Positions 10,938-53,820 of a stretch of DNA of 64,000 nt are shown in pieces. Under the pieces are notes generated by a model, which was given only the letters and a program-made list of their open reading frames with translations, had not been told where the DNA came from and made no database searches. Location of the stretch: positions 1 through 64,000 of IMG/VR virus record IMGVR_UViG_3300043086_000064, one strand, 5' to 3'. Made by a program: the position numbers and the translations under genes. The DNA comes from a virus (Duplodnaviria; Caudoviricetes). Numbering within the stretch: position 1 is the first letter of the stretch; the number at the start of each line of letters is the position of its first letter.

Positions 10938-11175
10938 TTATCTTTCCTCCTTACATATATATTATATAATAATTTTTATTTCTTTTCCATGCGGCGCCCT
11001 GTTCGCTGCCGATGAGGTCCCGCATACTAAAAAAGTCTCTCCGGCTGTTTGAGAGACTCTTTAAAGAAATGGCAATTATTATAGAAGATTCCTTTTTAGA
11101 TGATGAATAAAGGTTTTTGCAAGTGGGTAGGTTTATAGTGGATTTTCTTCTTTGCCTTTCTTCATATTTATTTTA

Positions 11176-11772
11176 TCAAAAATTTTTTGAATTGTCAAAA
11201 TATATTGTCCAAATTCTGGAAAAATCTTTATAGAATCTCCAAGGGGCGCGAACAGATTTGCAAATAGAAATCAACTCTTTTCTATTAAACCCTTTTGGAG
11301 GCTTTTGTCTTAAAACGATAATTTTAAGAAGCTCGTCGTAAGAATACATCTTTTCTTTTGTTCCATTGTTTAACATAAAGAAGTCTGAACCAACCAATTC
11401 AACAGTATATGGGGAAAGGAAATGGTTCATTTCATCTCCTCGGTAGAACTGATAAGAAACGCCCTCTTTTAACTCTTTTGCATTGAGAGCTTCTTGTAGT
11501 GGCTCAACATAAACACCATAATAAACTTTAAGACTTTTAATCAAATCTCTCATACAATCTAACTCACTAAAATCAAATAAAGAGCTGTGATTATTAAGAC
11601 TAAAGGCGCATTTATCGCGCCATAAATCAATCTCAATAACTTTTTCAGCAGTTCCGTCTGGTGGGGTGAATGTAAATTTTAGGTCATCAATTTTTTCAAT
11701 CTTACATTCCGCAAGAGGATAGTCAATAGATTGGTTAATCATAGCTCCTAAAACTTCATTTGTAATAATCAT
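11176..11772 (-). CDS. Hypothetical protein
   Basis: 198 aa, translationally coupled to the SprT-like gene (GGAGG RBS). Confidence 0.6.
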   Translation of the reverse strand: MIITNEVLGAMINQSIDYPLAECKIEKIDDLKFTFTPPDGTAEKVIEIDLWRDKCAFSLNNHSSLFDFSELDCMRDLIKSLKVYYGVYVEPLQEALNAKELKEGVSYQFYRGDEMNHFLSPYTVELVGSDFFMLNNGTKEKMYSYDELLKIIVLRQKPPKGFNRKELISICKSVRAPWRFYKDFSRIWTIYFDNSKNF

Positions 11773-11773
11773 A

Positions 11774-12271
11774 TCATTTGCCTCCTTTGATTATTTCAAA
11801 CCCTTCATGTTTACATTTTGGGCACATGTAATCTTCAGGGTTTTTGACAGATTTAGTTAAACGTGTAAAACCATATAAACCGCCACATTCTGGACAACGC
11901 AGAACGTGTTTATAATATTTTAAAGGAATGTGCAAATCTTTAATGTTTGCTGTTGTGCTAATGCCTAAGTCATAATGTTTATTAACCTGATTAGCCAGAT
12001 AGCGCCATTCTCCAGTGTGTCCTTCTCCTGGACAAACTGCATGAAGAATTTCATGGATACCAACATGGTCTAAAGAGGATTCTGGGGTGTTCTCATCAAG
12101 CATCATATCAGAAATTTGAATTTCAAATTCACCATTTTCATAGATACATTTGCCAAAACATTTTCTCAGTCTTTTGTTAACACTCCATGTAATCTTATCT
12201 TCTGGGCAAACAATACCAATTTCAAACAACATATCATACCACTTTCCGATGTAGTTATTCAAATTTCTCAT
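11774..12271 (-). CDS. SprT-like zinc metalloprotease with C-terminal Zn ribbon
   Basis: HEILHA (HExxH), GHxGEW, CPEC...CPKC. Confidence 0.85.
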   Translation of the reverse strand: MRNLNNYIGKWYDMLFEIGIVCPEDKITWSVNKRLRKCFGKCIYENGEFEIQISDMMLDENTPESSLDHVGIHEILHAVCPGEGHTGEWRYLANQVNKHYDLGISTTANIKDLHIPLKYYKHVLRCPECGGLYGFTRLTKSVKNPEDYMCPKCKHEGFEIIKGGK

Positions 12272-12370
12272 ATCTATAACCTCTTTCCCTTTTTACATTT
12301 ATATTATAACAAAAATTTATTATAAAATACATGCGGCAACCTCTTTACCGCCGACAAGGTCCCGCACATA

Positions 12371-12403
12371 AGAAAAGAGAAGTGAAATTCACTTCTCTTT
12401 TCC
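12371..12403. terminator. Rho-independent (probably bidirectional) terminator
   Basis: GAAAAGAGAAGTG-AAATT-CACTTCTCTTTTC hairpin just after the 12430 stop. Confidence 0.7.
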
Positions 12404-12429
12404 GGAAAGGAGGATAACTTTTATTTCGT

Positions 12430-12789
12430 CTACACAGAGTAAACTGTGCTTTTCTTCTTTTCAATCATTGTTAAACTTTTCTTAACAGTACCATCTTTAA
12501 CCATTGGAGAAATCAGAGAAGTGATTTTCTGTGGGGAAAGGGAGGCAAGTTCTTCAGCTCGTTCTTGGATACCAGTTCGTGACAATGGTTCACCAGCATC
12601 TTGAAGCACTGTAAGAATTACTCCGCGAAGTGTTGCATCATGTTCTTTTTTCTCTTTACGTTTTGCAGATTCGTTAGAGGATTTACGACTCAATACATCA
12701 AGTTCAGTTTGAATTTTAGCAACCAGTTCATCATTAGCATTTACTTCTTCCATATTCAGCAGCATTTCATACATTTCAACTTTTGTCAT
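12430..12789 (-). CDS. Small winged-helix DNA-binding protein (phage nucleoid-associated-like)
   Basis: VILTVLQDAGEPLSRTGI...SPQKITSLISPMVKDGTVKK; same architecture as 55352-55738; own promoter and terminator. Confidence 0.6.
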   Translation of the reverse strand: MTKVEMYEMLLNMEEVNANDELVAKIQTELDVLSRKSSNESAKRKEKKEHDATLRGVILTVLQDAGEPLSRTGIQERAEELASLSPQKITSLISPMVKDGTVKKSLTMIEKKKSTVYSV

Positions 12790-12856
12790 TTTTCTTACCT
12801 CTTGTTTTTCTTTCTTTTTCTTTTTACATATATATTATAATATAAATTTTTTATTT

Positions 12857-13327
12857 TTACCAGTAATATCTTTCAGTATTCACACTGATGTAAACTTTTT
12901 TAGTTCTCCAACCACATTCAACTTCAATAGCGTCATCATCAAGTAATTCTTCAAACACTTCTTCAAATTTCTCTTTTGTCCAACCGTGTTTTTCAGTCAT
13001 AACTTTTTTTAAGGAATCCAAGTCATCAAGCTCTCCTTCAGCATCATTCTCATCAATCTTATTGGCCTCAAAGAACAATAATCCTTTATCTCCACCAAAG
13101 ATTGGAAGGTTGTCAAAATCATTAAAGTACTTTTCATAGATAGCGGGGTCAATGCAACTAAAGTGTACACCATCAATAGTTTCTTCTCCAGGTTCATACA
13201 TAAAGTCGTCAACAATTTCTTTTATTTCTTCTGAATTTTCTGCTTTACTAATTAACTCCTTAATAATCTGAGCCTGTTCAACATCATCGAAAATAACTGC
13301 CATATACTGTGGGTAGTAGCCTAACAT
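12857..13327 (-). CDS. Acidic hypothetical protein
   Basis: 156 aa, D/E-rich, own promoter at 13352. Confidence 0.65.
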   Translation of the reverse strand: MLGYYPQYMAVIFDDVEQAQIIKELISKAENSEEIKEIVDDFMYEPGEETIDGVHFSCIDPAIYEKYFNDFDNLPIFGGDKGLLFFEANKIDENDAEGELDDLDSLKKVMTEKHGWTKEKFEEVFEELLDDDAIEVECGWRTKKVYISVNTERYYW

Positions 13328-13399
13328 TTTTTATTCCTTCTTTCTTTCTTTTTACATATATATTATAACTTAAATTTTTTAATTTTTAAAGTTTCCGAT

Positions 13400-13669
13400 T
13401 TAATAAACCACTAAGTACCAAGGTTCGCTTCTGTAAAGTCTAATTCTTTCCATGTCACACAGGGCGTCTAAGGCGTCCCATATAACAAGAGTGTCTAGTT
13501 CTTTGTCTGTCATGTTTTGAACAAGAGGAAACAAATCTTTTCTTGTAAAGTCTGTTAGCGACTCAATTTGAATAGATTCTTTCTCCGTTATCTCAACAAT
13601 CCTTTTTAATACTGCGTGTGTAATATCACACACTTCTTGAAAATCTTTAGGTTCTAAATAAATACTCAA
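13400..13669 (-). CDS. Hypothetical protein, related to 13672-13962
   Basis: 89 aa; DKELDTLVIWDALDAL parallels MSDKEVWDTLGEL. Confidence 0.55.
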   Translation of the reverse strand: MSIYLEPKDFQEVCDITHAVLKRIVEITEKESIQIESLTDFTRKDLFPLVQNMTDKELDTLVIWDALDALCDMERIRLYRSEPWYLVVY

Positions 13670-13671
13670 TT

Positions 13672-13962
13672 CTATCCCTCCAATGGTAAAGGTCTTACAA
13701 TTTGAATGTAATAATGTTCAGCTTCTTCATCATAGCCTACCACAATTACATCTTGAAGAATTAGCTCACCAAGAGTATCCCAAACTTCTTTATCAGACAT
13801 CTCCATTCCTTCATACAATTTTTCCAACTTCTGTGAAGCTCTATCAGAAACAAGAGTGAAAGTGTAATTAACTATATCCTCTGTAATAATTAGAGCTTCT
13901 GAATACCGCTGCGAAAGTTCCTCAATAGCTTGATATACGGCTAAAGTTTTCCAAATGTTCAT
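13672..13962 (-). CDS. Hypothetical protein
   Basis: 96 aa, GAGG RBS, promoter at 13982. Confidence 0.6.
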   Translation of the reverse strand: MNIWKTLAVYQAIEELSQRYSEALIITEDIVNYTFTLVSDRASQKLEKLYEGMEMSDKEVWDTLGELILQDVIVVGYDEEAEHYYIQIVRPLPLEG

Positions 13963-14080
13963 ATTTATTACCTCTTTCCTTTTGCATATATATTATAATA
14001 TAAATTTTTTAAAAATTAAATGAGGCGGGAACTGCTTCGCAGCTTTACGTTTTATTCAAACAACCGCCAAGGAGGTGCCG

Positions 14081-14509
14081 CTAGAATAAATAAGTATCAT
14101 CTGGAAAATCAAAGGAAGAATCATAAAGATAATAAATCAGGTCGTCTTTTGTGATTGTGGAGCAAGGGTGAATTTTACTTAACATCTCTTGTTCACCATA
14201 AGTGAATACCATTCCAGCAAAAAGTTCTTCGTCACTCAATCCATGGTTATTGAAAATTTCTTCTTCGTCCATATAGCCGCTTTGAACACAAAAGTTGACA
14301 ACATCATCAAGGAGATAATAGAAAGGTGACATTTCTACGCTATCACTAACGTAAACTTCATAGCTTTTCTTATTATCTATTGTAATTTTAGTTTTAATTA
14401 AAACAACTTCCATAACAGAGGAGTTTGCATCTTTTTTGAAGCGGAAGTCATAAATTCTATGGAAATTATTAGGGGCTAATTCATGGTAAAGTTTTTTTGT
14501 TTTAATCAT
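14081..14509 (-). CDS. Hypothetical protein
   Basis: 142 aa, GAGG RBS, promoter at 14529. Confidence 0.6.
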   Translation of the reverse strand: MIKTKKLYHELAPNNFHRIYDFRFKKDANSSVMEVVLIKTKITIDNKKSYEVYVSDSVEMSPFYYLLDDVVNFCVQSGYMDEEEIFNNHGLSDEELFAGMVFTYGEQEMLSKIHPCSTITKDDLIYYLYDSSFDFPDDTYLF

Positions 14510-14579
14510 AATATATACCTCTTTCTTTTTACATATATATTATAATATAAATTTTTAAAATAATAAAAGCTGCGGGACC

Positions 14580-15065
14580 TTACTCGCAGCTTTCAACTTC
14601 CTCCATGTTAATAACTTCAATACTCTTAAATCCTTCATTATAATAAGGCACTTCAAGGTCATAATAGTCCATTTCAAGATTATGTGGAAGAGCCTGCTCA
14701 TCTCTCATAGCGTTTTTCTTTAAACAGTTTTCAAGGGTATCATTAAAGAAAACCGCATTGACTTCAATATCCTGTTCATTCATACGAGAGCAGAAAGTTT
14801 TACGTCTTTCTTTTTTAATGTTTGTTGCATCATAGATAGCCAATCTATCTTTCTCTTTTGTCTTTGTGCTATTTAAGAAATTTTCAATTTGCTCATGCAC
14901 TTTTGCAAATACTTGGTCATCTGTCATATTGTAAAACTCATTCTCAACATCTTTATTGGAAAAAATTTTACAGTCCTTATTTTTTTCTTTTTCTTTTAAC
15001 TCATTCGCATAGGTAGTTTTTCCCACCCCTGGAACGCCAATTAACATAACACATTCTTTTTTCAT
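14580..15065 (-). CDS. P-loop kinase, AAA_33 / polynucleotide-kinase-like
   Basis: Walker A GVPGVGKT; DATN-x4-RR typical of the PNK-like kinase module. Confidence 0.85.
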   Translation of the reverse strand: MKKECVMLIGVPGVGKTTYANELKEKEKNKDCKIFSNKDVENEFYNMTDDQVFAKVHEQIENFLNSTKTKEKDRLAIYDATNIKKERRKTFCSRMNEQDIEVNAVFFNDTLENCLKKNAMRDEQALPHNLEMDYYDLEVPYYNEGFKSIEVINMEEVESCE

Positions 15066-15080
15066 TCTTATCTTCCTTTC

Positions 15081-15338
15081 TTATATGCGCAGCACCATAC
15101 AAATAACACCAATTAAAAAAACAACAAAGCAGATAATAACACCGCTTTCCCAATATTCAACCCAATCATCAATAGGTTGAACAATTTGAGTTGCACAGCA
15201 TATAATATCGCCAATATAGCCTAAAACTAAAAGACCAGCCAGGATAGCAACACCTACGAGGCTAATTTGAATCATTGATACGTAAAACATAATTCCAATT
15301 CTTGTTCCTGGGGGGTTCCTCCGCCGCGATAAGGACAC
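15081..15338 (-). CDS. Small membrane protein (start uncertain)
   Basis: Two hydrophobic segments. Confidence 0.45.
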   Translation of the reverse strand: MSLSRRRNPPGTRIGIMFYVSMIQISLVGVAILAGLLVLGYIGDIICCATQIVQPIDDWVEYWESGVIICFVVFLIGVICMVLRI

Positions 15339-15383
15339 CCCCTCTACTTTCCTTTCTTCTTATAACATTATAACATAAATTTT

Positions 15384-15629
15384 TTATTTTTTAAACTGTA
15401 CGCATACAAAATAGCCGACACAGCCGACCACTATACAAACAATAGCAACAACGGCTGTAAACGCCCAGACGTTATAGAACCAAGTCGGATAGGTCAATTC
15501 CGGCCTCGCATAATAAGCAACCTCTAGGATAACAGACATGGCAAAAACAACGATTGAGGTAGCCAAACTCAAGAACCCGCAATCTGCAATCAGAATCAAA
15601 ACGCGAGTCAAAACATTTTTGTCTAACAT
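15384..15629 (-). CDS. Small two-TM membrane protein
   Basis: 81 aa, hydrophobic, GGGGAG RBS. Confidence 0.55.
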   Translation of the reverse strand: MLDKNVLTRVLILIADCGFLSLATSIVVFAMSVILEVAYYARPELTYPTWFYNVWAFTAVVAIVCIVVGCVGYFVCVQFKK

Positions 15630-15646
15630 AAATATTCTCCCCTACT

Positions 15647-15943
15647 TTAAAGCAAGCAGATGCTCCTAGCTAAGTCAGCTAAAACAACATCACGGCGAAA
15701 ATCTTCCAGAGGTGTTTCAGGCTTAATCTCCAGAAGTTGCAGAATTATTTCAACATCACTATGCTCAATAGCATAATCCTGTTGTAACCTAGTTATATCA
15801 TTTGTTTCATATCCTTCTTTAGCTAAAGTTAATAACTCTATGCCTAGTTTACACGCCTGAATTTCCCTCTCTTGAGTTCTCTCCATTTTGTCCACAACAG
15901 AACAATATAATTTATTAACATTTAACATTTTTAATTTCCTCAT
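15647..15943 (-). CDS. Hypothetical protein
   Basis: 98 aa downstream of TTGTAA-17-TATAAT. Confidence 0.55.
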   Translation of the reverse strand: MRKLKMLNVNKLYCSVVDKMERTQEREIQACKLGIELLTLAKEGYETNDITRLQQDYAIEHSDVEIILQLLEIKPETPLEDFRRDVVLADLARSICLL

Positions 15944-16022
15944 TTCCTAAATAATTATACTAAAAAATTTCAAAATTTACAATATAAAGGCGGGACCTCG
16001 CTCGCCGCCTAATGGTTCCCGC

Positions 16023-16343
16023 CTATCTCCACATGAGAACAATTCCACAAAGCTCTCCCGTGTCTTCTTTTACTCTTATTATTTTAAACGCTTCTCTTGG
16101 CTCTTCTTCTTCCAGTACGCTTGTAATCCATTCTTCTCTCTCTTGATTATCCTTACAAATTTTCACACTTGTAACTTTACAATCTGGCCCAGGAAGCCAT
16201 TTATCGTTATCTAATTCAGCTTCTGTAAGAACTAAATCATATTCATAAGTATCAGCCTTCGTTTTCAGATAATTCTGAAACATCAGATAAATCAGTGCTG
16301 CTATCTCCGCTATTGCTACTGCCCAAATCGCCAAATTCAACAT
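16023..16343 (-). CDS. Hypothetical protein with N-terminal TM anchor
   Basis: 106 aa; GAGG RBS. Confidence 0.55.
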   Translation of the reverse strand: MLNLAIWAVAIAEIAALIYLMFQNYLKTKADTYEYDLVLTEAELDNDKWLPGPDCKVTSVKICKDNQEREEWITSVLEEEEPREAFKIIRVKEDTGELCGIVLMWR

Positions 16344-16554
16344 GAACCTCTACCTCCTTCTCAGTTACTAGCTCTCCATCTAAAACTAACTCAATCTCTT
16401 TTCCAATCTTTTTAATACCTTCTTCATCTACATGTCTTGGTCTACCGTCTGGTCTAAAAATAACGTCACACATAGCCGCTTCATTGATTACAGGCAAAGG
16501 ATTTCCACATTGTTTATCATAATTCCACGGACACTTCCCATTTCTACAAATCAT
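16252..16554 (-). CDS. Small Cys-rich protein, related to 10746-10937
   Basis: CRNGKCPWNYDKQCGNP...MC; start overlaps the upstream stop. Confidence 0.5.
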   Translation of the reverse strand: MICRNGKCPWNYDKQCGNPLPVINEAAMCDVIFRPDGRPRHVDEEGIKKIGKEIELVLDGELVTEKEVEVHVEFGDLGSSNSGDSSTDLSDVSELSENEG

Positions 16555-16934
16555 TAAAATACCCCCCTACACAATAGAAGAATATCTTCGTCTAAGGCTG
16601 CTCTCTCCAATTCTTTTTTAATTTTGTGATAAATTAACACATCATTCTCTTTAAAAATGTGAAAAGACATCAGATTAAACTGAAAATCAACAACAGTCCC
16701 AGAAGATTGTGCAATCATTCTAAGAAGAGGTTCTTCATAGGTTTTAACACAATGGTTGTATAACGGCCTGTTAGCTTGAATAAAATCAATCTTGTCATTC
16801 TTTCCTACCTTAGTTGCAAGGTTTGGCACATCAATCATTTCTACATCAAAATTTTCATTCTTTAATTCTTTTGGACTTACACTCTTAACCATCTCTTTAA
16901 CAAAAGTGTTGATAATATCAGTGGCAGTGTTCAT
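16554..16934 (-). CDS. Hypothetical protein
   Basis: 126 aa, AGGAGG RBS, promoter at 16962. Confidence 0.6.
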   Translation of the reverse strand: MNTATDIINTFVKEMVKSVSPKELKNENFDVEMIDVPNLATKVGKNDKIDFIQANRPLYNHCVKTYEEPLLRMIAQSSGTVVDFQFNLMSFHIFKENDVLIYHKIKKELERAALDEDILLLCRGVF

Positions 16935-17046
16935 ATAGCCATTCCTCCTATTTATATAAATATTATACCTTAATTTTTAATAAAAGTACATGCGGCAACC
17001 TTTTCGCAGCCGACGAGGTCCCGCCTAAAAAAGAAGGGGAGAAAGT

Positions 17047-17430
17047 TTACACTTCCTCCGTAGAATTTTCTTTGATAATCTCTCTTAATGTTTTCAAAGC
17101 ATTGTCGATTGATTCATCTAAATAATTGATAATTTCCTCTTGATTGATAACTGTACTTAACTCTGGATAATCAGTGTAAAGCTGTTGAATAACTTGAGCA
17201 CGTTTCAAAGCTCCGGCCTTGGCCACATCTTGATAATCTTCCTCGGCCTGTTTAACATAATTCAACATAATCTCATTGATTTTAGCTTTGATAATCTCAA
17301 TCTTTTGCTCTTTTGATTTGTTCATAAAAACATAAATCTGTTTAATAATTTCTGCAATCAAAATTAAATCAATAACCAAAGTCAGCCAGTTGTCTTTCAA
17401 CCACATTAAAATGTTAATAGCAGATTTCAC
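17047..17430 (-). CDS. Holin, LL-H (superfamily VI)-like
   Basis: One N-terminal TM followed by AEEDY...GALKRAQV...IDNAL, as in LL-H-type holins. Confidence 0.6.
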   Translation of the reverse strand: MKSAINILMWLKDNWLTLVIDLILIAEIIKQIYVFMNKSKEQKIEIIKAKINEIMLNYVKQAEEDYQDVAKAGALKRAQVIQQLYTDYPELSTVINQEEIINYLDESIDNALKTLREIIKENSTEEV

Positions 17431-18381: not shown

Positions 18382-18404
18382 ATATGATTTACCTTTCTAT
18401 TTGT

Positions 18405-18683: not shown

Positions 18684-18746
18684 ATCTTTCTCCTTCTCTG
18701 GAATAGAATTTGTTTCATCTAAATTTCTTTGATTTGCCCAGCCTCT

Positions 18747-19442: not shown

Positions 19443-19512
19443 TTTTAATTCCTTTCCTTATTTACATATATATTATAATATAATTTTTTATTTTAGTACA
19501 TGCGGGAACCGC

Positions 19513-20238
19513 TTAGCAGCTCCTGTGCATGACCAAAGTCAGAATTAAATCTTCTGATTCACTATATAAAGATTCATCGACTGTATCATTTGGATTTTGA
19601 GATTTTCTTTCTAAGATAATTTCTCTCATTTGCTTAAAAGTTTCTTCATTCAGCTCGATACCGTGCTGTTCTGCATATTCAAGAGGACAAAAGAAATCTC
19701 TCATCTCTTTGTCTAAGCAGTCTTTCAATTCTTTATTTGCTAATCTCATTCCAACATATTGATAAGCGAATTGGGTTCTTTTAAATTTCTTATTTTTCTT
19801 TTGATTTAAACCCATTCCACAAACGCTCAAAGCATCTGCCCAAGGAGCATGTTCTGCCATTTTATATTTCAAGAGATGTCTGAATAAAGAAATTTCTTCT
19901 GAATAGCGAGCATTGAGAAAAACAGATTTTGAATAAAGAATTTCTAAAATATTAAATGTTCCTCTTAACATTCCTTCATAAACAGTCACCACGTCTTTAA
20001 CAACAGTGTGTTCACCATTTGGAAGTACATATTCTTTGCTGATACGGCCTCTACCAAACATATAATCTTTGGTATTTGGAATAACAATAGTAACAGAATC
20101 AACATCTGAATTTTCATCATCAATTCCATAGTTTTGACTACCAATTAGACAAACAGCTAAGATAGCTTTGTCTGGGTAATAATTTTTAATAAACTGATAA
20201 TGCTGATAAATGCTTTGTTTAACTTTATAATCATTCAT
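19513..20238 (-). CDS. Pol-beta superfamily nucleotidyltransferase, RlaP/PF10127-like
   Basis: GSQNYGIDDENSDVD (GS-x2-YG-x5-SDxD) and N-I-L-E-I-L-Y-S. Confidence 0.8.
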   Translation of the reverse strand: MNDYKVKQSIYQHYQFIKNYYPDKAILAVCLIGSQNYGIDDENSDVDSVTIVIPNTKDYMFGRGRISKEYVLPNGEHTVVKDVVTVYEGMLRGTFNILEILYSKSVFLNARYSEEISLFRHLLKYKMAEHAPWADALSVCGMGLNQKKNKKFKRTQFAYQYVGMRLANKELKDCLDKEMRDFFCPLEYAEQHGIELNEETFKQMREIILERKSQNPNDTVDESLYSESEDLILTLVMHRSC

Positions 20239-20448
20239 ATTTTACATCTCTCTTTCTTTTTACACTCATATTATAACTTAAATTTTAAAAGTTTTCCATG
20301 CGGCGCCTCCTTAGCCTCCGATGTGTTGATATATAAAGATGCAAGGTGGTTGCCGCGGACAATACCCTTTAAATTGCAATTCTCACTTTTGTTTTAGAAA
20401 GAGAATAGGAAGAGGAATACTTTCTATTATAGAAAGGAGAAAAGACTA

Positions 20449-20736: not shown

Positions 20737-20748
20737 GAGGTATAATAT

Positions 20749-21165: not shown

Positions 21166-21185
21166 CTTGAAAGGAGAAAAATCTA

Positions 21186-35900: not shown

Positions 35901-37214
35901 ATGGCAAATTATAAAACTTTTTCACCTATTCTTACAACACAAACTAAACTTGACGATGGAGAAATTGCCATCAAAGAAGGTCAGTTGATTGTAACAAGAG
36001 ATGGGGGAGGTATTTATTACGATACCGCTTCAGATAGAGTCCTTGTTAGTAAAGATGACACAAAACTTGATGCCACATCTGGTGTTGCTTATTCTTCGCT
36101 AAGAGTAAAACCTAACATCATAAGCAGTCCATCTGGCAGCTTTTATCCTCTCTTTGCAGCTTCAACTGCAACTCACATTATTCCAACAGAAATAAGAAAT
36201 TCTTGCTCTTTTTATGAGGGAAGTAATACAAGTAACTTTATTCTAGGAAACAGTACCGCAACAACAGCAACCGCTGGGCGTAAAGGCCAGTTGGAAATAT
36301 ATGGAACAGGTACTGGTTCAACTAAAATTACTCCTGGAAACACAAGCTCTGATACGAATACTTTAACTCTGCCTGCAACAACGGGAACACTCGCAACACA
36401 AGAAACAATGGCGGCGACCTACTTGCCGCTTACTGGAGGAACCTTAAGTGGGAGCGTTATTGTGGGTGATGCAACAGCAACTACTGAATATCAGTTAGGC
36501 GCACAATCTACTGCGGGTAAAATTTATATATATTCAAATCCTTCTAGTGGTAATAGAGGTGTGTGGGATATTGGCATACAAGATTATCTTTTAAAAATAG
36601 ATTCATCTAACAATGTTCATTATCAGGGTGGTAGTTTTCACACTAATCTCTGGGTTGATGGAAATATTGCAAATGGTGGAACTTTAAACGTTGCGGGAAC
36701 CTCTTTACTGCAATACGGGTCGCACAATAAAACGAGCATGCCTGGAACCTCTGGCACTTGGGGATATGTAAACTTTATGCAAATCCAAGTAAATGGAACT
36801 TATTGCAATAAACCTATTGTCTTTAATGTTCATCAAAGAGGACGCCCAACACGTAGAATTGAAATGCGTTTTAAAAATACGCAAAATTCAACAGACCACA
36901 CTCTTGAACAATTTGATGAAATGAACCTGTGGGATAGTTGTGGCATCTACGCGACGCAATCTTCCGGTGTGGTAAATTTATATGCGAGCAAAAGTGAATC
37001 CTATGACACTATCAGCGTCAGTGATTTAGCTTACGACTGGGGGTATATGAATTTAACTATCAAATACCCAGGAACCTTAACAACTTCTACTGTTAGTGGT
37101 TGGTCAGAAGCAGCTTGTTGGAAGAAGAACAATATCCCAACAATCTATTACGGCACTTCAACACCAAGTTCAAGTACCGGTAAGAACGGTGACATCTACG
37201 TAGTTTACTCATAA
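35901..37214 (+). CDS. Tail fibre / receptor-binding protein, paralog A
   Basis: N-terminal ~175 aa homologous to 37248; YLPLTGGT; C-terminal YYGTSTPSSSTGKNGDIYVVYS. Confidence 0.7.
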   Translation: MANYKTFSPILTTQTKLDDGEIAIKEGQLIVTRDGGGIYYDTASDRVLVSKDDTKLDATSGVAYSSLRVKPNIISSPSGSFYPLFAASTATHIIPTEIRNSCSFYEGSNTSNFILGNSTATTATAGRKGQLEIYGTGTGSTKITPGNTSSDTNTLTLPATTGTLATQETMAATYLPLTGGTLSGSVIVGDATATTEYQLGAQSTAGKIYIYSNPSSGNRGVWDIGIQDYLLKIDSSNNVHYQGGSFHTNLWVDGNIANGGTLNVAGTSLLQYGSHNKTSMPGTSGTWGYVNFMQIQVNGTYCNKPIVFNVHQRGRPTRRIEMRFKNTQNSTDHTLEQFDEMNLWDSCGIYATQSSGVVNLYASKSESYDTISVSDLAYDWGYMNLTIKYPGTLTTSTVSGWSEAACWKKNNIPTIYYGTSTPSSSTGKNGDIYVVYS

Positions 37215-37247: not shown

Positions 37248-38558
37248 ATGAAATACAAAACTTTTTCTCCTGTCTTAACCACAACAAGAGATATGGAAGA
37301 CGGCGTCGTACCTATTGTTGATGGGCAACTTGTTGTTGCAAAAGATGGTGGAGGAATTTTCTATGATGATGGGAGTAAAAGGACTCTTGTCAGTAATTCT
37401 GAATACTCTAATACCATTAACTCATTACAAATAAATGAAGATGGATTTTTCTATCCTCTCTTTACAAATGAAGATGGGGATTATATAACTCCTAAACAAT
37501 TAAGAGATGCTTGCACTCTTTTTAATAAAGACGATACAAGCACTCTTATATTAGGAGACAACAACCTTAGAAAAGGTCAATTACAAATATATGGAGCCAA
37601 TTCAGGCTCAACAAAAATTATTTCTACCAAAGAAGATTCAACCATAAACACTTTAAAATTGCCAATAACATCAGGAACCTTAACAACAGAGGAAGAGATG
37701 GCGGCGACCTACTTGCCGCTTACTGGTGGTGGCATCAATGGAAGCCTTTGGGTTAGAGATAATATCAGCACAAATGGAAATGTGTATATAGGCACTTCTA
37801 ATGGAACTACACAGTCTACTGTTGGTGTCAATTCTTCTGCGGGAGAGTTTGCTTTACACTCAAATCCGGCTAATGGTATGCGAGGAATTTGGGATTCTAG
37901 GTCTAGTAATTATTTGGCTTACTTTGACACAAGCAATAATCTTTATTATTCTGGAGGAACCTTTACTTCTAATCTTTATGTTGGAGATAAATATAAGTCA
38001 ACAGAATCAGATGTAGGCGTAAACTCAACTGTTGGTAGAATGTATATGTACTCAAATCCCGATTCAGGCTGGAGGGGTATTTGGGACGACACAATGAACA
38101 GTTACATTTTCAGGGTGAACGCAGGAGGCAATGTGAATTACGCAGGCGGTATCTTCCAAGGAGACATAGAGATTCCTTATAAAGCGTCCACTAGAGGCAG
38201 CGAAGCTCCGACAGTTCCCGTATCTATGGCTGTTACTATTGACTCAACGAACGACTTATCAACATATAAAACTGTATTAGGAACGGCCAATATAGGAGGC
38301 TCTTGGAATCATATAATTAGCACAAGACATAGAAATGGTGCCGGAGATGGTAGTAGTTATGGCCTATATATTAGAACTTTGGTAGACGGCAGCGATGGTT
38401 TAAGATGGCAAGCTCAAAGTGGAGGAGTCTGGAAAGGTGAAAAAAGGATTCTCGATTCTTCCAACTGGGGAGATTATGCTTCAAAAACTTATTATGGCAC
38501 TTCCGCTCCAAGCTCTAGTGTGGGAAAAAATGGAGATACTTATATAGTATATTCTTAA
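37248..38558 (+). CDS. Tail fibre / receptor-binding protein, paralog B
   Basis: Same N- and C-termini as 35901 with a divergent middle; internal SNP-x-x-G-x-RGIWD repeat present twice. Confidence 0.7.
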   Translation: MKYKTFSPVLTTTRDMEDGVVPIVDGQLVVAKDGGGIFYDDGSKRTLVSNSEYSNTINSLQINEDGFFYPLFTNEDGDYITPKQLRDACTLFNKDDTSTLILGDNNLRKGQLQIYGANSGSTKIISTKEDSTINTLKLPITSGTLTTEEEMAATYLPLTGGGINGSLWVRDNISTNGNVYIGTSNGTTQSTVGVNSSAGEFALHSNPANGMRGIWDSRSSNYLAYFDTSNNLYYSGGTFTSNLYVGDKYKSTESDVGVNSTVGRMYMYSNPDSGWRGIWDDTMNSYIFRVNAGGNVNYAGGIFQGDIEIPYKASTRGSEAPTVPVSMAVTIDSTNDLSTYKTVLGTANIGGSWNHIISTRHRNGAGDGSSYGLYIRTLVDGSDGLRWQAQSGGVWKGEKRILDSSNWGDYASKTYYGTSAPSSSVGKNGDTYIVYS

Positions 38559-48600: not shown

Positions 48601-49662
48601 AACAATAATGCTTCTATTAACAAATATTATTACAATCCAAGACAAATAGTTGTAATAAGACATACAAAAGGTCAACAAGGTTTAACTATCTATTACAAAA
48701 AACGTTCTAATCCTTCTACTGGTATGTGGAGTGAAGACTATAAAGTGGTTTCTGAAGTTATAAACTTTGGAGTTTCAACTTTACCACCTTCTGGAAGTCT
48801 TACAACTAGCTCTGGTCTCATTTTTGGAGCAAGAAAAAGAAAAAGTACTGGTGCTTATTATGCAAAAGGACAGGGCAAAATAAATTATTGTAAAGTATGG
48901 TATGGCGACTTAGGTGACACAGAGTGTAAAAAAATTGCTAGTTGGATTTATGAAAAACGAGAATTTGCTGTTGGTAGCGGAAGAGCTTATTCAACTATCA
49001 CTGGCAATAAAACAACTTTTACTTTTATTGACACTGGAATGTTAGATATTCTTAAAACATATCATACTTCCTCTAGTAATCGTGGTGGTTTCAAGTATTC
49101 TTTAATAAGAGAATACCTAAATGGTACTGTGTATAATGCTATGTCTAATACTTGGAGAAGTATTATTAAATTAGTTAATGTTTCTTCAATTAAAGGCGGC
49201 GCCAGTGATTATCAGTCGATAGAAGAATCCATTCCTGGAACGCTCTTCCCTGGAGACACAAATACCAGAGATGCTGACGGCTTGCTGCCAGGCAGCGCCA
49301 CAATTCCAAGTCAAAATTACATCTTCTTACCTAGTTACGCCGAGGTTGCTCAATCAGACGCCTACAATAGTTATAATAATGAACTTCCTGGAGGAGACAC
49401 AACAAAATATTTTGTTGCTTACACAGACGCAAAATCAAGAATAAAAACGATAGAAACCTATGTCTCTCCATCGGACCAACTCACACCAATGCCTTGGCCT
49501 TGGTTAACAAGGAGTCCTGCTCCTATGGGAAATCAAAGAGGGGTAGGTAACGTAAACTACTTGGGAGAAATTAGTTCTTCTACAACTTCTTGGACTTCCG
49601 AAGATTCTCGTTATGACATTTCTCAAACTCCTTTGGGCGTTTCTATTTGCTTTACTGTATAG
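42637..49662 (+). CDS. 2341-aa multidomain virion protein: Ig-like, LamG-like, CotH-kinase-like, LRR, InlB-B-like repeats, DUF6273-like C-terminus
   Basis: IDNRAKN...YDNDTALGCDNSG (CotH-like); LEEIDLRGC/LKRIY LRRs; YTFNKW/YLFKNWD repeats; IFLPSYAEV...WLTRSP. Confidence 0.65.
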   Translation: MAKLNNFKGGVELISGISPKNNNDFALVDAHYVQVEDKEKPDKRLDEKLSELTTAVKNNEGVEKLKETVDENSGRLDELEVAVNGTPSETNPDVTEGGAAKNAAKALELATTIKNAFVGQDFTENSIDLSKIGNYSRIWYKEDNSTLYMYDPSYLPDEDTAFDPNEYPKWSGNVKDAMSSTVISGGGGGGSASASRVRLKRVGSSTITVKKGDPVVLTINYASVPQSATGDDVETLGIPATAKVFVNKVLQTTVSFIEGDNNVDITQYIGNGTSTVSVTVTNEEGVSASIYYTVVAVELTLTSNFSDALAQKTTAYISVTPTGNVTKTLHVIIDGKESTTNIGTSNTSTTVSVSPNGHGVRTVKIYVSATLDGGIELESNALYYEIMFITDSGTSTLIRSNYDGTPLQQYTTYVFKYSVYNPKTSTSLTTISIDDGETVEVKSEVNADRSEQTFSYKPMEANENLTLIIESGGTRKEIPFTVEAFADADKIKPITGVELAFDFSPESRTNNDVNKDVYEYNGYKATFSDGFDWVNGGWLVDENNIDYLCIKAGDTLTIDYPLFGDDPRDKGKNFKVIFKAVNCKKFDAQVMSCLAEANQDTEVTEEVTTTDPNTGEEVTTPVKKLVRFKAGIQLTAQSGDLYPGSYKPIEAPYLEDELLELEYNIQSKSETREIVSYLSADPVCCRIYDENADMEQTSYGTGKALPVVFGSEDCDVHLYRFKVYTRSLSMEETLQNFYGDSLTAEDMSARYNRNQILNDDGELDYNKIATMYPEMRIILIECPVFTNGKSNTVKGCTVQQIMGNGDPVHNWTATGVSLKGQGTSSDAYGDSARNLDIKCSDGFDYVENGETKHSKTYAMTDDSVGVNYFNMKVNVASSENANNSRLAERYNQYQPFIRQARKDNPKVRDTMEFHPCIIFIKETGIDSTGAAVTPLEVPADGKYHFYAAGDFGNSKKNAKAFGMTDDPLECIIEFSNNTFPQCLFKKGTDEIGIEDFKFDAKNGVEADSFWAGKVFEFRYPDVKDFTCVTESSDSFETEEDYQAYVTQQESNKAYVNTMVSNFRKVWEWTESTNQQTATNNILTSPFIYNGVKYTKDTVEYRKAKFTAEVGDYYVKDSLVFHYLFTERFIMIDNRAKNTFIHYNVDGDSTVKGRWDFVFNYDNDTALGCDNSGYLTIPYGSEDTDRMSANGDYYFNGWQSGLWCNVRDCLNSELRTMATDLSECWRGANVIQFFNDYQDIKPEVLEMKDMWKKYLRPAEGYTRPNGEAVQTTEFIERLNGKKKYQRARFETYQDAYFSSKYATPTAVQDSITGRFTSNIGSSTVPFGEYFTLTPYSDLYVSMYFDGIVERVRAKAGVPTKIYLQQGNEYQDKNYTIRSASMLQDLGDLSPFYLYSTGFGPGKRIQKLLLGNEKEGYFNSKFDQLSVGSTNTLLEEIDLRGCAMTSNPAVDVSMIPSLKRIYTKDSGVSSIAFANGAMLELADINNVNGLTLRNLYYLSDENLKMDSYENLQRLIYENCPNLNELNMIKNAPNLNRVRLVDVNWTDDEDEKDARGALEDTSLLNRLVAIGGINENGINTTNSVLTGKIQVHSTILPSEMRAYQKAWNAGFDENSESPLIITGTGIGAEIEVVFRGANKEVLYSEYVEEGNLAPDPLEKGYIKTPTKASDDMYDYTFNKWSIDIATTPIMTNNPSIVNGQLFVDAEFTTALRTFTVIWKQGTASNSEVMVSTTVTYGDEAVYEDVYKAKKNVKIPEYPTKADSLASGSSTVMRTYLFKNWDKSTGCVTQDMTVYPVFEEGVFGGFNVEPDYSEMSAADVSVWAKNFELNEDREVGGTKTDSDSSTYFFPAGTKVNVQFGYMPDFNGSTNDTVGKVTSEVIVGEGSNYNYSSPIVLDGNTVVEIPEVQLLKEDKDFVLALDFSSGYKKYTSATSDDQIYNTIMSIAGDLGQSSFDAMETRIVLTQNTAPKFQIGSNITENSLSEFVPSVTPYNNNASINKYYYNPRQIVVIRHTKGQQGLTIYYKKRSNPSTGMWSEDYKVVSEVINFGVSTLPPSGSLTTSSGLIFGARKRKSTGAYYAKGQGKINYCKVWYGDLGDTECKKIASWIYEKREFAVGSGRAYSTITGNKTTFTFIDTGMLDILKTYHTSSSNRGGFKYSLIREYLNGTVYNAMSNTWRSIIKLVNVSSIKGGASDYQSIEESIPGTLFPGDTNTRDADGLLPGSATIPSQNYIFLPSYAEVAQSDAYNSYNNELPGGDTTKYFVAYTDAKSRIKTIETYVSPSDQLTPMPWPWLTRSPAPMGNQRGVGNVNYLGEISSSTTSWTSEDSRYDISQTPLGVSICFTV

Positions 49663-49672
49663 GAGATAAAAA

Positions 49673-49969
49673 ATGTTTTACTATAAGACTGTTATTGATA
49701 ATACAACGTATTATTTTAATGAAAATGCTTTTTGCGCTTACAATAGCACTCTACAACGCTATATTCTTTGCAGTGTTCAATACGCCCAAGATGTTGTGGT
49801 AAATGATAAAATTTATAGGGTTGACTGGTTATTCCCTGAAACGGGGCCAGATGCTGGAACGCATCAAACAATTCAAATTCAACAAACCACAAAAGAAGAA
49901 TATGACGCTTGGAGAGAAACACTTCAAGAGCAAAAACTAAAAGAAATGAGAGAGATTAGCGAAAGCTAG
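49673..49969 (+). CDS. Small tail-associated protein
   Basis: 98 aa, AGGAG RBS, last gene of the module. Confidence 0.55.
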   Translation: MFYYKTVIDNTTYYFNENAFCAYNSTLQRYILCSVQYAQDVVVNDKIYRVDWLFPETGPDAGTHQTIQIQQTTKEEYDAWRETLQEQKLKEMREISES

Positions 49970-49984
49970 TCTCTCTTTTTTTTT
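49948..49984 (+). terminator. Rho-independent terminator
   Basis: GAGAGA-TTAGC-GAAA-GCTAG-TCTCTC followed by a T-run. Confidence 0.75.
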
Positions 49985-50060
49985 ATGCTTGTGCGGGACC
50001 TCGTTGGTGGAGTAATGGGTAGTGTAAAAATCTGCAAACAAGGTGCCGCACAGGTATAAA

Positions 50061-50262
50061 AAAAGAGAGAAGCCTCCCCATTTGACTTCTCTGCTTTTGT
50101 TTTGCTAACCATGAAACATTATATATAAACTGAAAGGCTTGCATTGGAATAAGAGGTGTAGTGAGTGATTTTATTTTTGGAAGAGTGGTTAGCAAAACTT
50201 ACCAATTAGATGCAGCTGCACATCTTACGATTAACTGGCATAGCTTCAGAGTTGTCTGGCGA
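50061..50262 (-). ncRNA. Candidate structured small RNA B
   Basis: TATAAT near 50267 on the minus strand; hairpin AGATG/CATCT within CCAGTT/AATTGG; 12-bp stem TTTTGCTAACCA/TGGTTAGCAAAA; ends at a GAGAAG/CTTCTC hairpin plus T-run. Confidence 0.4.
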
Positions 50263-50339
50263 TAATATTATACTCCTCTCTCTTTCGAGTTGCCTATTGC
50301 TACGCTTTAACACTTCTTCTCTATACAAACCTTTTTAAT

Positions 50340-50560
50340 TTTTAATTACTATTGTTCTCCTTTCAATGAAGACACAACCGAAAGAGGTTAAAAGTTGCGC
50401 CCTCATTGAAAGGAGAACGTTCATTCATTTAGTGTGAACCAAGGGACACCGCGTGGAGGCGAATGAGCTATCCCTCAAACTTAGGGGATAAACCCCTAGG
50501 CCGAAAGGAGGATGTTAACATCCAAAAAAACAAAACCGATTAGAGATTATCTCTAACTTC
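50340..50560 (-). ncRNA. Candidate structured small RNA A
   Basis: Minus-strand TATAAT near 50567; no convincing ORF; 15-bp stem TTCTCCTTTCAATGA/TCATTGAAAGGAGAA, TAGGGG/CCCCTA, GGATGT/ACATCC and UUCG-type loops. Confidence 0.45.
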
Positions 50561-50583
50561 TCTTGTATTATATCAAAAATTTT

Positions 50584-50961
50584 TTAAACTTGCAAATTTT
50601 TAATGAAATATTGACCAGGAACTTTTCTTGTAAATTCATTAGCTACACTAGCCATACTCATATCTTCTTTAGGGACAAACAATACAAAGCAATCCTCTTG
50701 TTTTACTTCGTATTTAGGAACTTTAACCAATCCTTTTGAGGTAGCTTTCATTTCTTCTCCTACAACAGTTTTACTGTAAATACCCATATCAAAAACATAA
50801 TGATTTAATCCCTCATGGCGCTCAATCTGACGAACATAATATTCATAATCTTTTCCATCTACTGTCCAAGTATGCTGCTCTAAATCTATAACAACTTCAT
50901 TCCAAACTCTTGTCACCTTGTTCAATCTACGCTGAAGTTTTTTCAATTTTGCATCTCTCAT
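50584..50961 (-). CDS. Hypothetical protein, tandem paralog of 51008 (start revised to 50961)
   Basis: MRDAKLKKLQR and EMKATSKGLVKVPKYE versus MRDKKLRKIQR and EMKSSPKGYVKVPKCE. Confidence 0.65.
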   Translation of the reverse strand: MRDAKLKKLQRRLNKVTRVWNEVVIDLEQHTWTVDGKDYEYYVRQIERHEGLNHYVFDMGIYSKTVVGEEMKATSKGLVKVPKYEVKQEDCFVLFVPKEDMSMASVANEFTRKVPGQYFIKNLQV

Positions 50962-51007
50962 TTTCTTTTCTCCTTTATTCATTTACACATATATTATACT
51001 AAAAATT

Positions 51008-51475
51008 TTATTTCTTTTCCACTTCAAACTCTGGGAATCTCTGTTTAGCCTCTACATAATTGCCATTATCATCATAAATAGGGGCATACAATAAACTCAA
51101 GACTTCTTTAATTTCAGGAATAAATGAAGTGTCTAAATTATCAAAAGTACCTTCAATCTCTGATGGAGTAAACAACTCCCAACGGTGAATAAATTCTTCT
51201 TCACACTTAGGAACTTTCACATATCCTTTTGGACTGCTTTTCATCTCAAACCCACCAATAGGGTGACTTTCATACAAGTCAATAGTAAAGCCATAAGCAG
51301 TTGGAGCTACATATATGGCAGCAGCCTCTTCGTCACACCAAGTAACATTCTTAATAGTATATCTTTCAGTTTGTTTCAAATAAAAATTCTCCTGTATATT
51401 TTTCAATTCCTTATTAACGTTCTTTATTTTTCTGTTAATTTTCCTTTGTATTTTTCTTAATTTTTTATCTCGCAT
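51008..51475 (-). CDS. Hypothetical protein, tandem paralog of 50584
   Basis: 155 aa; AGAGG RBS. Confidence 0.65.
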   Translation of the reverse strand: MRDKKLRKIQRKINRKIKNVNKELKNIQENFYLKQTERYTIKNVTWCDEEAAAIYVAPTAYGFTIDLYESHPIGGFEMKSSPKGYVKVPKCEEEFIHRWELFTPSEIEGTFDNLDTSFIPEIKEVLSLLYAPIYDDNGNYVEAKQRFPEFEVEKK

Positions 51476-51488
51476 ATCTTTCCTCTTT

Positions 51489-52562
51489 CTAATCTGGATA
51501 ATTCGTTTTTAAAAGACGTTTATATGTTTCCTCATTAGGTCGACCAAAGGCAAGCGCAGAAAACCAGCGGGGCTCAGTTAGCTGCATTTGTTTTACCCAC
51601 ATAGCGTACTCTTTTTTAGATTCATTTGGGCGGCTTTCAAGGTGCCGCTCACACTCATCACGAGCCTTTAAAAGTTCCTCATATAAATTTTTTAAATAAT
51701 CAACAGTGGAAACTAATTGTGGTCGATATAGAAGAAGCTCATCAACATCATTGTTTATTACTCGTTCAATTACCAAATCTTTACTAACCTCTTGTGTAGC
51801 CATCTTATGAACAGCAACATACGCAGGGTCTTTTACTTTTACTCTCTTGTTATTTTTATCCTTAACAATAAAGCCTTCATGTTCAACAGTGTCAGTCTTA
51901 TTTAATTCTTTGGCTGCGGCGATTACATCGTCTAGGTTGCTTAAAGAATAATACTTAGGTTTTTCAACATTTAAATTTCTGTCATACTCTTCTCCTGTTG
52001 CATTGTCTCGACAAGAGAGATGATATAATTTAGGCTTGTCATAGTGAACAACAACTTGCGTCTTAGGAGATACTAATTCAAATAGGTATGTGCAAAAAGG
52101 AGACATCAAATCCATTCGGATTCCACTGTTAGCTAACGCTTCTTTTATCTGTTGTGTAAATAACTCATCAGCATGAAACATTCCTTGAGTAGCAAATCGC
52201 CATTCTCCATAATAATAGGCTTTAATTAAGGAGCCATCAATCTTCTCTTGCACCTTTGCAGTTTTCCAATCAATAGCATCTGCATTAGACTCACCATAAT
52301 TAAAGAATTTATCAAAAGGCCGACAAACAAAAGCCATGTATTTTAAGTTAACAATGTGTCCGCGGCACTCTTTTTGCAGCGGAATAGACCAATCTAAGCG
52401 AGCCACAGAACCATCATCATTTACTTTTGTTTTGAGCATATTATATTTAAACAGTGCTAAGTCGCCTTCAAACTTAACATCAATAAACATATTAGCCATA
52501 TCTTCTTTTAACTGTTCTTTTGTGGTATAGTTATCTTTTAACCAGTTCAGCAGCTCACTCAT
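51489..52562 (-). CDS. ATP-dependent RNA ligase, T4 Rnl1-like
   Basis: RPFDKFFN, motif I EKIDGSLI, FELVSP, EGFIV, RVKVK. Confidence 0.9.
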   Translation of the reverse strand: MSELLNWLKDNYTTKEQLKEDMANMFIDVKFEGDLALFKYNMLKTKVNDDGSVARLDWSIPLQKECRGHIVNLKYMAFVCRPFDKFFNYGESNADAIDWKTAKVQEKIDGSLIKAYYYGEWRFATQGMFHADELFTQQIKEALANSGIRMDLMSPFCTYLFELVSPKTQVVVHYDKPKLYHLSCRDNATGEEYDRNLNVEKPKYYSLSNLDDVIAAAKELNKTDTVEHEGFIVKDKNNKRVKVKDPAYVAVHKMATQEVSKDLVIERVINNDVDELLLYRPQLVSTVDYLKNLYEELLKARDECERHLESRPNESKKEYAMWVKQMQLTEPRWFSALAFGRPNEETYKRLLKTNYPD

Positions 52563-52577
52563 ATTGACCTCTCTTTC

Positions 52578-52823
52578 TTAATATTGTGCTAAAATTTCTT
52601 TTATCTCATTATCTAATTCAAATATATCGTCCCAATATACTCGTATAAATTCATTAGCAGTTCTGTAATAATCAATCAACTCTCCTAACTCAATCTCTTT
52701 TGTTTCATAATCATGGAATACTAATCTTTTAAGTTTAAGCGTTCCATCATCTGTCTCATCAACAGCATACAATGTTACAGAGCCAGGGTTAATGTTTTTG
52801 ATTCTTACTAAAGTTTCGTACAT
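52578..52823 (-). CDS. Hypothetical protein
   Basis: 81 aa after TTGGAA-17-TATAAT. Confidence 0.55.
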   Translation of the reverse strand: MYETLVRIKNINPGSVTLYAVDETDDGTLKLKRLVFHDYETKEIELGELIDYYRTANEFIRVYWDDIFELDNEIKEILAQY

Positions 52824-52906
52824 AAATTATTTTCCTCGTTTCTTTTTACATGATTATTATAAAATAAAATTTTTAAAATTCCAAGTAGCCGATTTCTTAT
52901 ATCAAT

Positions 52907-52955
52907 TATGTGAATTATGTGATTTGTTATAAAATATGTGAAATTATGTGAAATT
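52907..52955. repeat. Four TATGTGA direct repeats at the strand-divergence point
   Basis: TATGTGA at 52907, 52916, 52935 and 52945. Confidence 0.75.
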
Positions 52956-53070
52956 AAATAAACTGACTTGACAAGACTAAAATTTTTGATAAGATATAGG
53001 AGTAGGAATCATGTGAAACACTTTATTTCTTGAAGGAAAAATATATAATATATATAGGGGGTATTCGGGT

Positions 53071-53244
53071 TTGAAAGACATTTTTACAAGAGAAGAGTTT
53101 GAAAAGATTAGAGAGAAGACAAGGGGCGAAGGCTGCGTAACACATACTCTTCTAGGAAATAAAAAAGTTAAACCTTTGTCTTTAAATAAATTAGATAAGA
53201 ACACTAAATTTAGATGTTCTTTATCTGATATTATAATTAAATAA
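53071..53244 (+). CDS. 57-aa basic mini-protein (TTG start), not in the ORF track
   Basis: GGGGG SD; C-terminal 33 aa match 53261-53413 at 19 positions. Confidence 0.6.
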   Translation: MKDIFTREEFEKIREKTRGEGCVTHTLLGNKKVKPLSLNKLDKNTKFRCSLSDIIIK

Positions 53245-53260
53245 TAAAAGGAGTCAATAT

Positions 53261-53413
53261 ATGGAAACTATAAAAGCTGTTAAAAATAATAAATTAGAAA
53301 CTCCTAAGTGGCATACTTTAATAGACAATAATAAAACAAAACCTATATCTTTAAAGAAATTAAATAAGAATAATAAATATCATGGTAGTTTATCTAACTT
53401 GACAATTAAATAA
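53261..53413 (+). CDS. 50-aa basic mini-protein, not in the ORF track
   Basis: AAGGAG SD; tandem paralog of 53071-53244. Confidence 0.6.
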   Translation: METIKAVKNNKLETPKWHTLIDNNKTKPISLKKLNKNNKYHGSLSNLTIK

Positions 53414-53820
53414 ATTTTTATTATTCTTTATATAAAGATAAACAATAGTAAGAGTAATATTTATATATGTAATTTATATATTAAATAATAATATATATAA
53501 TAATATACAATATATTTATATTACTCTTTTTATTTTTATTTATATCCATATTATATAAGACTCTTAAAAATATTAAACATCTTCTCTTCTCCAGGGCGGC
53601 AACCATTCGGAAGCGCAGAGGTTCCCGCACAGGGGAGTAGTAGGTTGAATTGAAATTAAAAATAATTTATAATATTATTAGTACATAAATAAAACGTTTC
53701 CCAAAAATATTATTTCTGAGAGCTTCTTAATTGTTTCATCTATTGTGTTTCCGAGGACTTACATGATAAAAATAAAAATTTATTATATAATTATTATGTA
53801 AAAAGAAAGAGGTAAAAAAC

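Follow-up and report, generated by a model that had tools for sequence, protein, structure and literature searches.

A long polar DNA element repeated through the genome of an SPbeta-like Bacillota phage and its possible role as the binding site of a phage-encoded regulator

The 64,000-nt stretch analysed here (positions 1 to 64,000 of the IMG/VR virus record IMGVR_UViG_3300043086_000064; hereafter the window) is part of an 82.4-kb phage contig (G000, 35% GC) and carries many copies of a long, asymmetric DNA element with a GCGG end, which occur singly or as head-to-head pairs of a few fixed spans. We consider it about evenly balanced that these are the polar binding sites of a phage-encoded regulator, which would act at early-type promoters and would also mark the genome at large. 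G000 encodes gyrase, NAD ligase, YorF, AAA_24, YorH, DnaB, primase, RecJ and the start of DnaE; its replication genes form an SPbeta-like module, and the phage is a gut-type, SPbeta-like Bacillota phage, whose relatives are gut and rumen phages of 130-165 kb recovered as whole contigs within unrelated metagenome-assembled genomes, mostly of Bacillota. A second, 31-kb fragment with head and tail genes (G001) carries the same 19-mer element and probably belongs to the same virus species, an independent lineage being less likely, because the two have equal GC content, complementary gene content and a shared occurrence in sample 3300035506. G000 and G001 make up the sequence in hand; about a quarter of the genome lies outside both, and searches for it did not recover it. 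Comparisons included a longer assembly of G000 that extends past the left end of the window (L053), and the near-complete relatives G003, G006 and G007.

An iterated matrix built from the genome itself recovered 91 copies of a 19-mer in G000 at a score of at least 13.5, compared with 2.3 in Markov-3 shuffles. The 22-bit consensus comprises GCGG followed by S, R, M and C, six weakly constrained positions and a terminal GCNKC, with GG at positions 3-4 in 90 of the 91 copies and GC at positions 15-16 in 61. The 19-mer is pseudo-symmetric, its right end in reverse resembling its left end, and unpaired copies also hold both the "core" box and a weak third patch at +25 to +33 that is roughly symmetric about +29 (C at +33 in 34 of 75 unpaired sites, chi2 40). 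These features contradict a preliminary description of this DNA in which single 19-mers were taken as half-sites. We propose instead that the unit would be an asymmetric double-stranded site of about 34 bp, with a strong box A (GCGG and five further bases, positions 1-9), a box B (GCNKC) at 15-19 and, at 24-34, a weak box C with rough symmetry about position 29, and that a sequence-specific protein, most likely encoded by the phage lineage, would bind it in a direction-sensitive way. Informative positions changed in 2 of 128 cases between strains differing at 8-16% of G/C positions, a low figure that is partly due to coding constraint. A literature search found no description of this motif.

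The pairs fall into discrete span classes. Convergent pairs in G000 span 19 bp four times, 33 bp five times, 57 bp five times and 58 bp twice, with every other span used once; random placement of the copies gave a span multiplicity of at least 3 in 16 of 20,000 trials, and, given 14 close pairs, one span was used at least five times in 10 of 200,000. The 33-bp sites lie at 10991-11023 (where the shared box B is at 11005-11009), 12333-12365, 15990-16022, 16992-17024 and 53596-53628, and each consists, as first described, of two 19-mers, one on the plus and one on the minus strand, that have 5 bp in common (GCTGC, ACCGC, GCCGC, GCAGC and GAAGC, respectively). Sites of 57 bp are found at 7353-7409, 8667-8723, 14025-14081, 20300-20356 and 49993-50049, and 58-bp pairs at 4018-4075 and, outside the window, within the ligase gene at G000 69493-69550. 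Self-overlapping 19-bp sites, which score on both strands, occur at 8279-8297, 36411-36429 and 37701-37719, and the left copy of the 8667 pair is also of this kind. Thus, the preliminary description was right that the spacing of inverted pairs is non-random, with spans quantised at 19, 33 and 57-58 bp genome-wide, and its 33-bp sites are real and beyond chance; as a description of the system it was incomplete, missing the 57/58-bp class, which is at least as common and, having no overlap, does not fit the overlapping layout of that description. G001 adds one pair each of 33, 32 and 57 bp, and L053 a 57-bp pair, located 66 bp from the contig end and just past the left end of the window, bringing the totals over the three contigs to six pairs of 33 bp and nine of 57-58 bp. 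This repetition of the span classes in G001 and L053 favours reading the element as a regulator site.

A matrix derived from unpaired sites only predicts where two opposite copies can coexist: opposite-strand compatibility is best at spans of 19 and 33, followed by 22, 46-47 and 58/57, the last being the highest of all above span 48, and the spans in use are 19, 23, 33 and 57/58. This comparison indicates that a 33-bp site consists of two complete sites with box B in common, and a 57-bp site of two with box C in common. At places requiring both orientations, the copies would therefore overlap at offsets that satisfy the sequence demands of each, through box B in the 33-bp sites, through box C in the 57-bp sites and by complete self-overlap in the 19-bp sites. 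The shared 5 bp fits GCNGC better in the 33-mers (3.6 of 4 positions) than does the box elsewhere (3.05 of 4) because there it must satisfy both strands. Contact between proteins may add to this geometry but is not required for it. The nearest analogue of the 33-bp arrangement is provided by the "bivalent" operators of phage P1, which consist of two overlapping inverted copies.

With inverted arms about a short centre and an overall length of about 33 bp, the 33-mers do resemble loxP, dif and FRT, and their 14+5+14 layout had suggested sites at which DNA is recombined site-specifically or nicked, with a crossover region of 5 bp. This we regard as very unlikely. The arms are not the mirror copies implied, only 3.7 of 10 non-GCGG positions being identical within a site as against 5.3 between sites. 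Partners of tyrosine recombinases need matching overlap regions, and those of the known systems are of 6-8 bp, identical and otherwise unconstrained, at few sites served by a cognate recombinase; the centre here is 5 bp, is constrained to GCNGC as a conserved recognition box that is also present in single copies, and is identical in 3 of 15 core pairs. Further, the 57/58-bp pairs are equally common and 55 of the 91 copies lie inside open reading frames (ORFs). No tyrosine recombinase (PF00589) was matched in G000, G001, G003, G006 or G007, the first two covering about three quarters of this genome, and no large serine recombinase (PF07508) in G000, G001 and the near-complete relatives. No junction was centred on any core in the assembled contigs of four runs, a weak test in that contigs drop rare variants, and contigs of the same strain and of about 92% identical strains cross the 33-mers collinearly (three 33-mers for the latter). 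What speaks for recombination is that one of the about 92% identical strains has a 249-nt insertion bracketed by two direct copies of 16991-17010, the left 19-mer of the 16992 site, with breakpoints at one place in three freshwater runs, and that other strain joints fall near the copies at 3893, 4075 and 14025. However, the insertion breakpoint can be placed anywhere within 20 bp, as in homologous exchange between repeats, and the insertion is evidence of cassette turnover at the repeat, not of cleavage at the core.

T4-type phages carry, in a variable small-gene region, promoter-early stem-loops (PeSLs; PMC2839356), repeats immediately ahead of strong sigma70-like promoters at which cassettes are also gained and lost. 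In the small-gene arm of the present phage, the pairs come after the end of one gene and before the promoter that follows. Two 23-bp variant pairs, at 5812-5834 and, in the same layout, at 9080-9102, are moreover followed by minus-strand T-runs and, to judge from their sequence, may double as terminators. That the pairs in general are RNA hairpins, acting as terminators or processing sites of recombination-spread promoter-terminator cassettes, is nevertheless the least probable of the explanations considered here. Unlike the PeSLs, which are genuine terminator stem-loops found only in variable regions, the present element is genome-wide and mostly single and intragenic, and its arms, less alike within than between sites, do not covary. 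The real 33-mers give weaker folds than do re-paired arms (-13.2 versus -16.2 kcal/mol) and, the 23-bp variants being the possible exception, have no U-run, and the pairs have no match in Rfam. In these respects the pairs do not act like RNA hairpins, to which extent the preliminary reading is supported, and a site for a DNA-binding protein is the best reading.

An indication of what such a protein might do comes from the minus-strand small-gene arm (5.7-20.3 kb). In nine promoters there, exactly 24 bp lie between the GCGG end and the TATAAT box downstream of it. This distance separates the 33-bp sites at 10991, 12333 and 16992 from -10 boxes at 10961-10966, 12303-12308 and 16962-16967; the 57-bp sites at 8667 and 20300 from those at 8637-8642 and 20270-20275, the latter at the switch from minus- to plus-strand gene blocks; the 19-bp site at 8279 from 8249-8254; the plus-strand single copy at 19502-19520 from 19472-19477; and the 23-bp variant at 5812 from 5782-5787, its counterpart at 9080 being laid out in the same way. 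Two promoters have the element at 27 bp (the 57-bp site at 14025 with a -10 box at 13992-13997, and the single copy at 14572), one at 30 bp (the 33-bp site at 15990, -10 box 15954-15959), and sixteen are without it. Four of the five 33-mers are thus promoter-linked; the fifth, at 53596, occupies a non-coding gap between divergent blocks at no fixed distance to a -10 box. None of the nine 24-bp promoters has TTG at -35, compared with 9 of the 16 motif-free ones (p=0.008), and promoter-proximal copies score above the others (26.8 versus 21.6 bits). The promoters of relatives keep TTG-type -35 boxes and have no element. Four more copies overlap a minus-strand Shine-Dalgarno sequence and end directly before the ATG: those at 5211, 5720 and 7054, which with 5461 form a series of plus-strand single copies between 5211 and 7072, and the left copy of the 7353 pair, which fills its intergenic gap. 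The gene whose end abuts this pair, at 7410-7769, has a weak match to the Pfam anti-defence family Tad8.

Class II activation is characterised by a site abutting a weak -35 box at a fixed phase, and the nine promoters have this layout. The box-A end abuts the -35 position of sigma-A-type promoters whose own -35 is degraded, and therefore the protein bound there would most likely contact RNA polymerase. We accordingly favour class II-like activation at the element promoters, with repression being possible. The element could also itself be the promoter recognised by an alternative sigma-like factor of the phage, serving transcription or the synthesis of primers, which we judge unlikely. Its tripartite, polar 34-bp footprint and the spacing of GG and GC by ten bases (90 and 61 of 91 copies) recall the -24/-12 promoters of sigma54, a factor that is reported to bind many intragenic sites in bacteria (PMC3844500, PMC7657599). 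The remaining sigma54 features are lacking, with T before GG in 0, TTGC in 14 and CAC in 7 of the 91 copies; half of the copies point against genes; and there is no match to Sigma54_DBD over the cut-off. A conserved 380-aa protein with a helix-turn-helix and a zinc ribbon, encoded upstream of the terminase, was considered and set aside, having no fold match, sigma-like or other.

Beyond the small-gene arm, single copies, mostly intragenic, are dispersed from 20400 to 64000 and on to 82.3 kb in G000, equally on both strands. Their orientation is biased solely in the small-gene arm. Copies are spaced more evenly than at random (coefficient of variation (CV) 0.60 versus about 0.9, p 0.0004; 1 of 308 control 6-mers was as low), and at the lower cut-off no gap exceeds 2.8 kb. 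Each strand is regular by itself, with a mean gap of about 2 kb; its CV is 0.58-0.62, and rises to 0.72-0.76 when the orientation labels are shuffled with positions kept as they are (for G000, p 0.005-0.012 at the two lower cut-offs; for G001, p 0.0003-0.11); several cut-offs were tried, and the regularity is weaker at the stricter ones. Orientations also alternate beyond chance (36 versus 28, p 0.03). The absence of a strand preference in genes, together with regular spacing on each strand, suggests a polar signal that is required in either direction and does not depend on transcription, and the evenly spaced intragenic copies would serve the protein bound at the promoters as markers, in both directions, over the remainder of the genome.

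This layout is the strength of the main rival, that the site is mainly a polar replication or end-processing signal, an explanation that we regard as possible but doubtful. It could be a primosome or primase loading site present on either strand about once per Okazaki-fragment length, with head-to-head pairs beside AT-rich promoters as bidirectional start points, or a Chi-like stop for a translocating nuclease-helicase. The per-strand regularity, the alternation and the lack of a tie to transcription direction are consistent with it, as are the enrichment of the GCGG core on both strands in relatives and the phage's own primase, helicases, RecJ and gyrase. GCGG is also the core of the Chi words of B. 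subtilis and S. aureus, and the Chi sites of Bacillota AddAB, as well as primase words, are similarly polar, intragenic and over-represented. However, known primase and Chi words are of 3-8 nt, not tripartite 34-mers, and are without pair geometry or promoter linkage. The long motif is not enriched in 401 Bacillota genomes, among which the true host may not be included: these have 0-4 copies per genome, as in the reversed control, versus 15 in 82 kb here, which counts in favour of the regulator reading. The replication account leaves unexplained the exact 24-bp distance to the -10 box and the loss of TTG at -35, there is no clear strand-specific compositional skew downstream of the sites (|z|<=2.2), the regularity fades at stricter cut-offs, and GCGG in relatives is unevenly spaced. 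Near-even coverage of the genome would also suit a virion-packaged or early protein using the sites in DNA entry, packaging or condensation; those processes are one-directional, yet both strands are marked equally, and the promoter spacing is again unexplained; we consider this account very unlikely.

Long asymmetric sites read by a monomer have precedents in the repressor of cluster A phages (PMC9283540), in SroF/MrpR of SPbeta (PMC10516654; 10.1101/2025.11.27.690993) and in C1 of P1 (PMC8546580). The element works like the sites of all three, the stoperators, the SPbeta element (SPBRE) and the C1 operators, but it departs from the first two in features that define them and has no sequence in common with the third. 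Like the stoperators of L5 and TipsytheTRex, which are read by a two-domain monomer, it comprises many polar, asymmetric copies at promoters and gene starts. Stoperators are of 13 bp, in about 20 or more copies, mostly intergenic and oriented with transcription; the present sites are of 19-34 bp, about one per kb, 60% intragenic, equal on both strands and arranged in fixed head-to-head pairs, in a genome with no integrase found. With the SPbeta element of MrpR/YopR/SroF it shares the broad phage architecture (the YorF, AAA_24, YorH, DnaB, RecJ and DnaE module) and the long site, that of SPbeta being of 24-26 bp, read by a monomer and located at distant promoters. However, the SPbeta sites number about ten, all of them at promoters, and serve a prophage repressor of the integrase fold, whereas 55 of the 91 copies here lie inside ORFs and no PF00589 match was found, although the profile could miss a diverged or dead integrase fold and the genome is incomplete. 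The P1 C1 operators (22 asymmetric 17-mers) are likewise asymmetric and used singly or as overlapping opposite copies, but are AT-rich, far fewer, restricted to promoters and those of a temperate plasmid phage.

Several observations weigh against a regulator as the reader of these sites. A purely transcriptional role leaves the intragenic copies unexplained, which are regular on each strand and yet ignore the direction of transcription (24 plus versus 25 minus inside plus-strand genes). The compatibility peaks at 46-47 are predicted but none is used. Profile searches of G000, G001 and the near-complete relatives found no integrase, and therefore a lysogeny repressor has no obvious job. Finally, the roughly three quarters of the genome in hand yielded no binding protein: about eight small winged-helix-like ORFs are present, none of them tied to the site. 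The candidates included four tandem paralogues of 247-260 aa at the left end (window 11-3515 and L053:12735-13517), members of a large uncharacterised family (383 representatives) with a predicted tandem winged-helix-like fold (predicted local distance difference test score 90, best Z 7.7). They were rejected as binders: three are each preceded by a different long inverted repeat of their own, and the family occurs in a relative without the element. In the relative L214, a 43-bp inverted repeat with GCGG arms (11526-11568) lies 3 bp upstream of a promoter -35 before a paralogue gene. There was also no match to a C5 methyltransferase.

The long element is limited to strains with at least 92% capsid identity; outside these, about 130 loci of related phages (encoding the 755-aa protein, capsid, baseplate or DnaE) contain no 19-mer, and other repeated dyads in them proved to be tRNAs, group I introns and terminators. 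Scanning IMG/VR with the 33-bp pattern gave 20 GC-rich chance matches and one real contig, G001, and scanning with a promoter-plus-motif pattern gave three matches, none with the element. Most members of the family are instead 3-5-fold enriched in GCGG/CCGC on both strands, as seen in G003, G006, G007 and loci L064-L180; it is the top 4-mer after synonymous-codon shuffling, with z of 5-10 in most relatives. It is depleted in the G005 group and flat in L137, L150 and L151. In G003 there are 28 GCGG-N3-CCGC pairs, the commonest forms of which match the first nine bases of the element, and to which runs of alanine codons may contribute. In G000, coding GCGG numbers 212 versus 141, an excess about equal to the number of intragenic elements. 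From these sequence comparisons, a short-to-long change in the specificity of a phage factor appears reasonable but is unproven.

Other features of this genome deserve mention. The remaining 57-bp site, at 49993, lies where plus- and minus-strand blocks converge, close to the end of a 30-kb plus-strand block (20449-49969) that encodes tail-fibre-like and very large proteins (2498 and 2341 aa) and is mostly missing from G003, G006 and G007; the 2341-aa protein has a match (30%) in the G005 lineage, which is otherwise distant. A structured repeat of about 100-130 bp occurs in two near-identical copies (2391-2490 and 3756-3855), each followed by a 19-mer copy. RNA-repair-like genes are dispersed in the window, namely an AAA_33 kinase, an RlaP nucleotidyltransferase, a T4 Rnl1-type ligase and a metallophosphoesterase, beside a tRNA-Gln (the set occupying 14580-15065, 19513-20238, 51489-52562, 57970-58686 and 59079-59152). 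GATC is nearly missing from both strands of the whole of G000 (16 versus 397 expected), an avoidance that differs strongly between relatives. DnaB (G000 73315-75417; L050/L056) falls about 90 aa short of its length in relatives, and a GIY-YIG gene and a 104-aa ORF come after it, which suggests that the helicase is split by an intron or a homing-endonuclease insertion.

Genome-wide motifs are known from other phages in the form of stoperators, the SPBRE and P1 operators, yet these are oriented with transcription or located at promoters. A single site that keeps a fixed place beside the -35 of a promoter class and is also spread evenly along each strand of the coding DNA suggests a protein linking early transcription to a process at the level of DNA. 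In a more speculative and rather improbable extension, a family of large gut phages would mark its DNA with GCGG on both strands, and this lineage would have exchanged that short word for the long, polar, evenly spaced site; the phage protein reading it would drive early promoters and also direct replication priming or protect the DNA from end-processing, a form of self-marking for which there is no described counterpart. The family-wide GCGG enrichment would represent a short-to-long specificity series in an abundant, uncultured family of gut phages, and the motif offers a ready bait for finding its protein.

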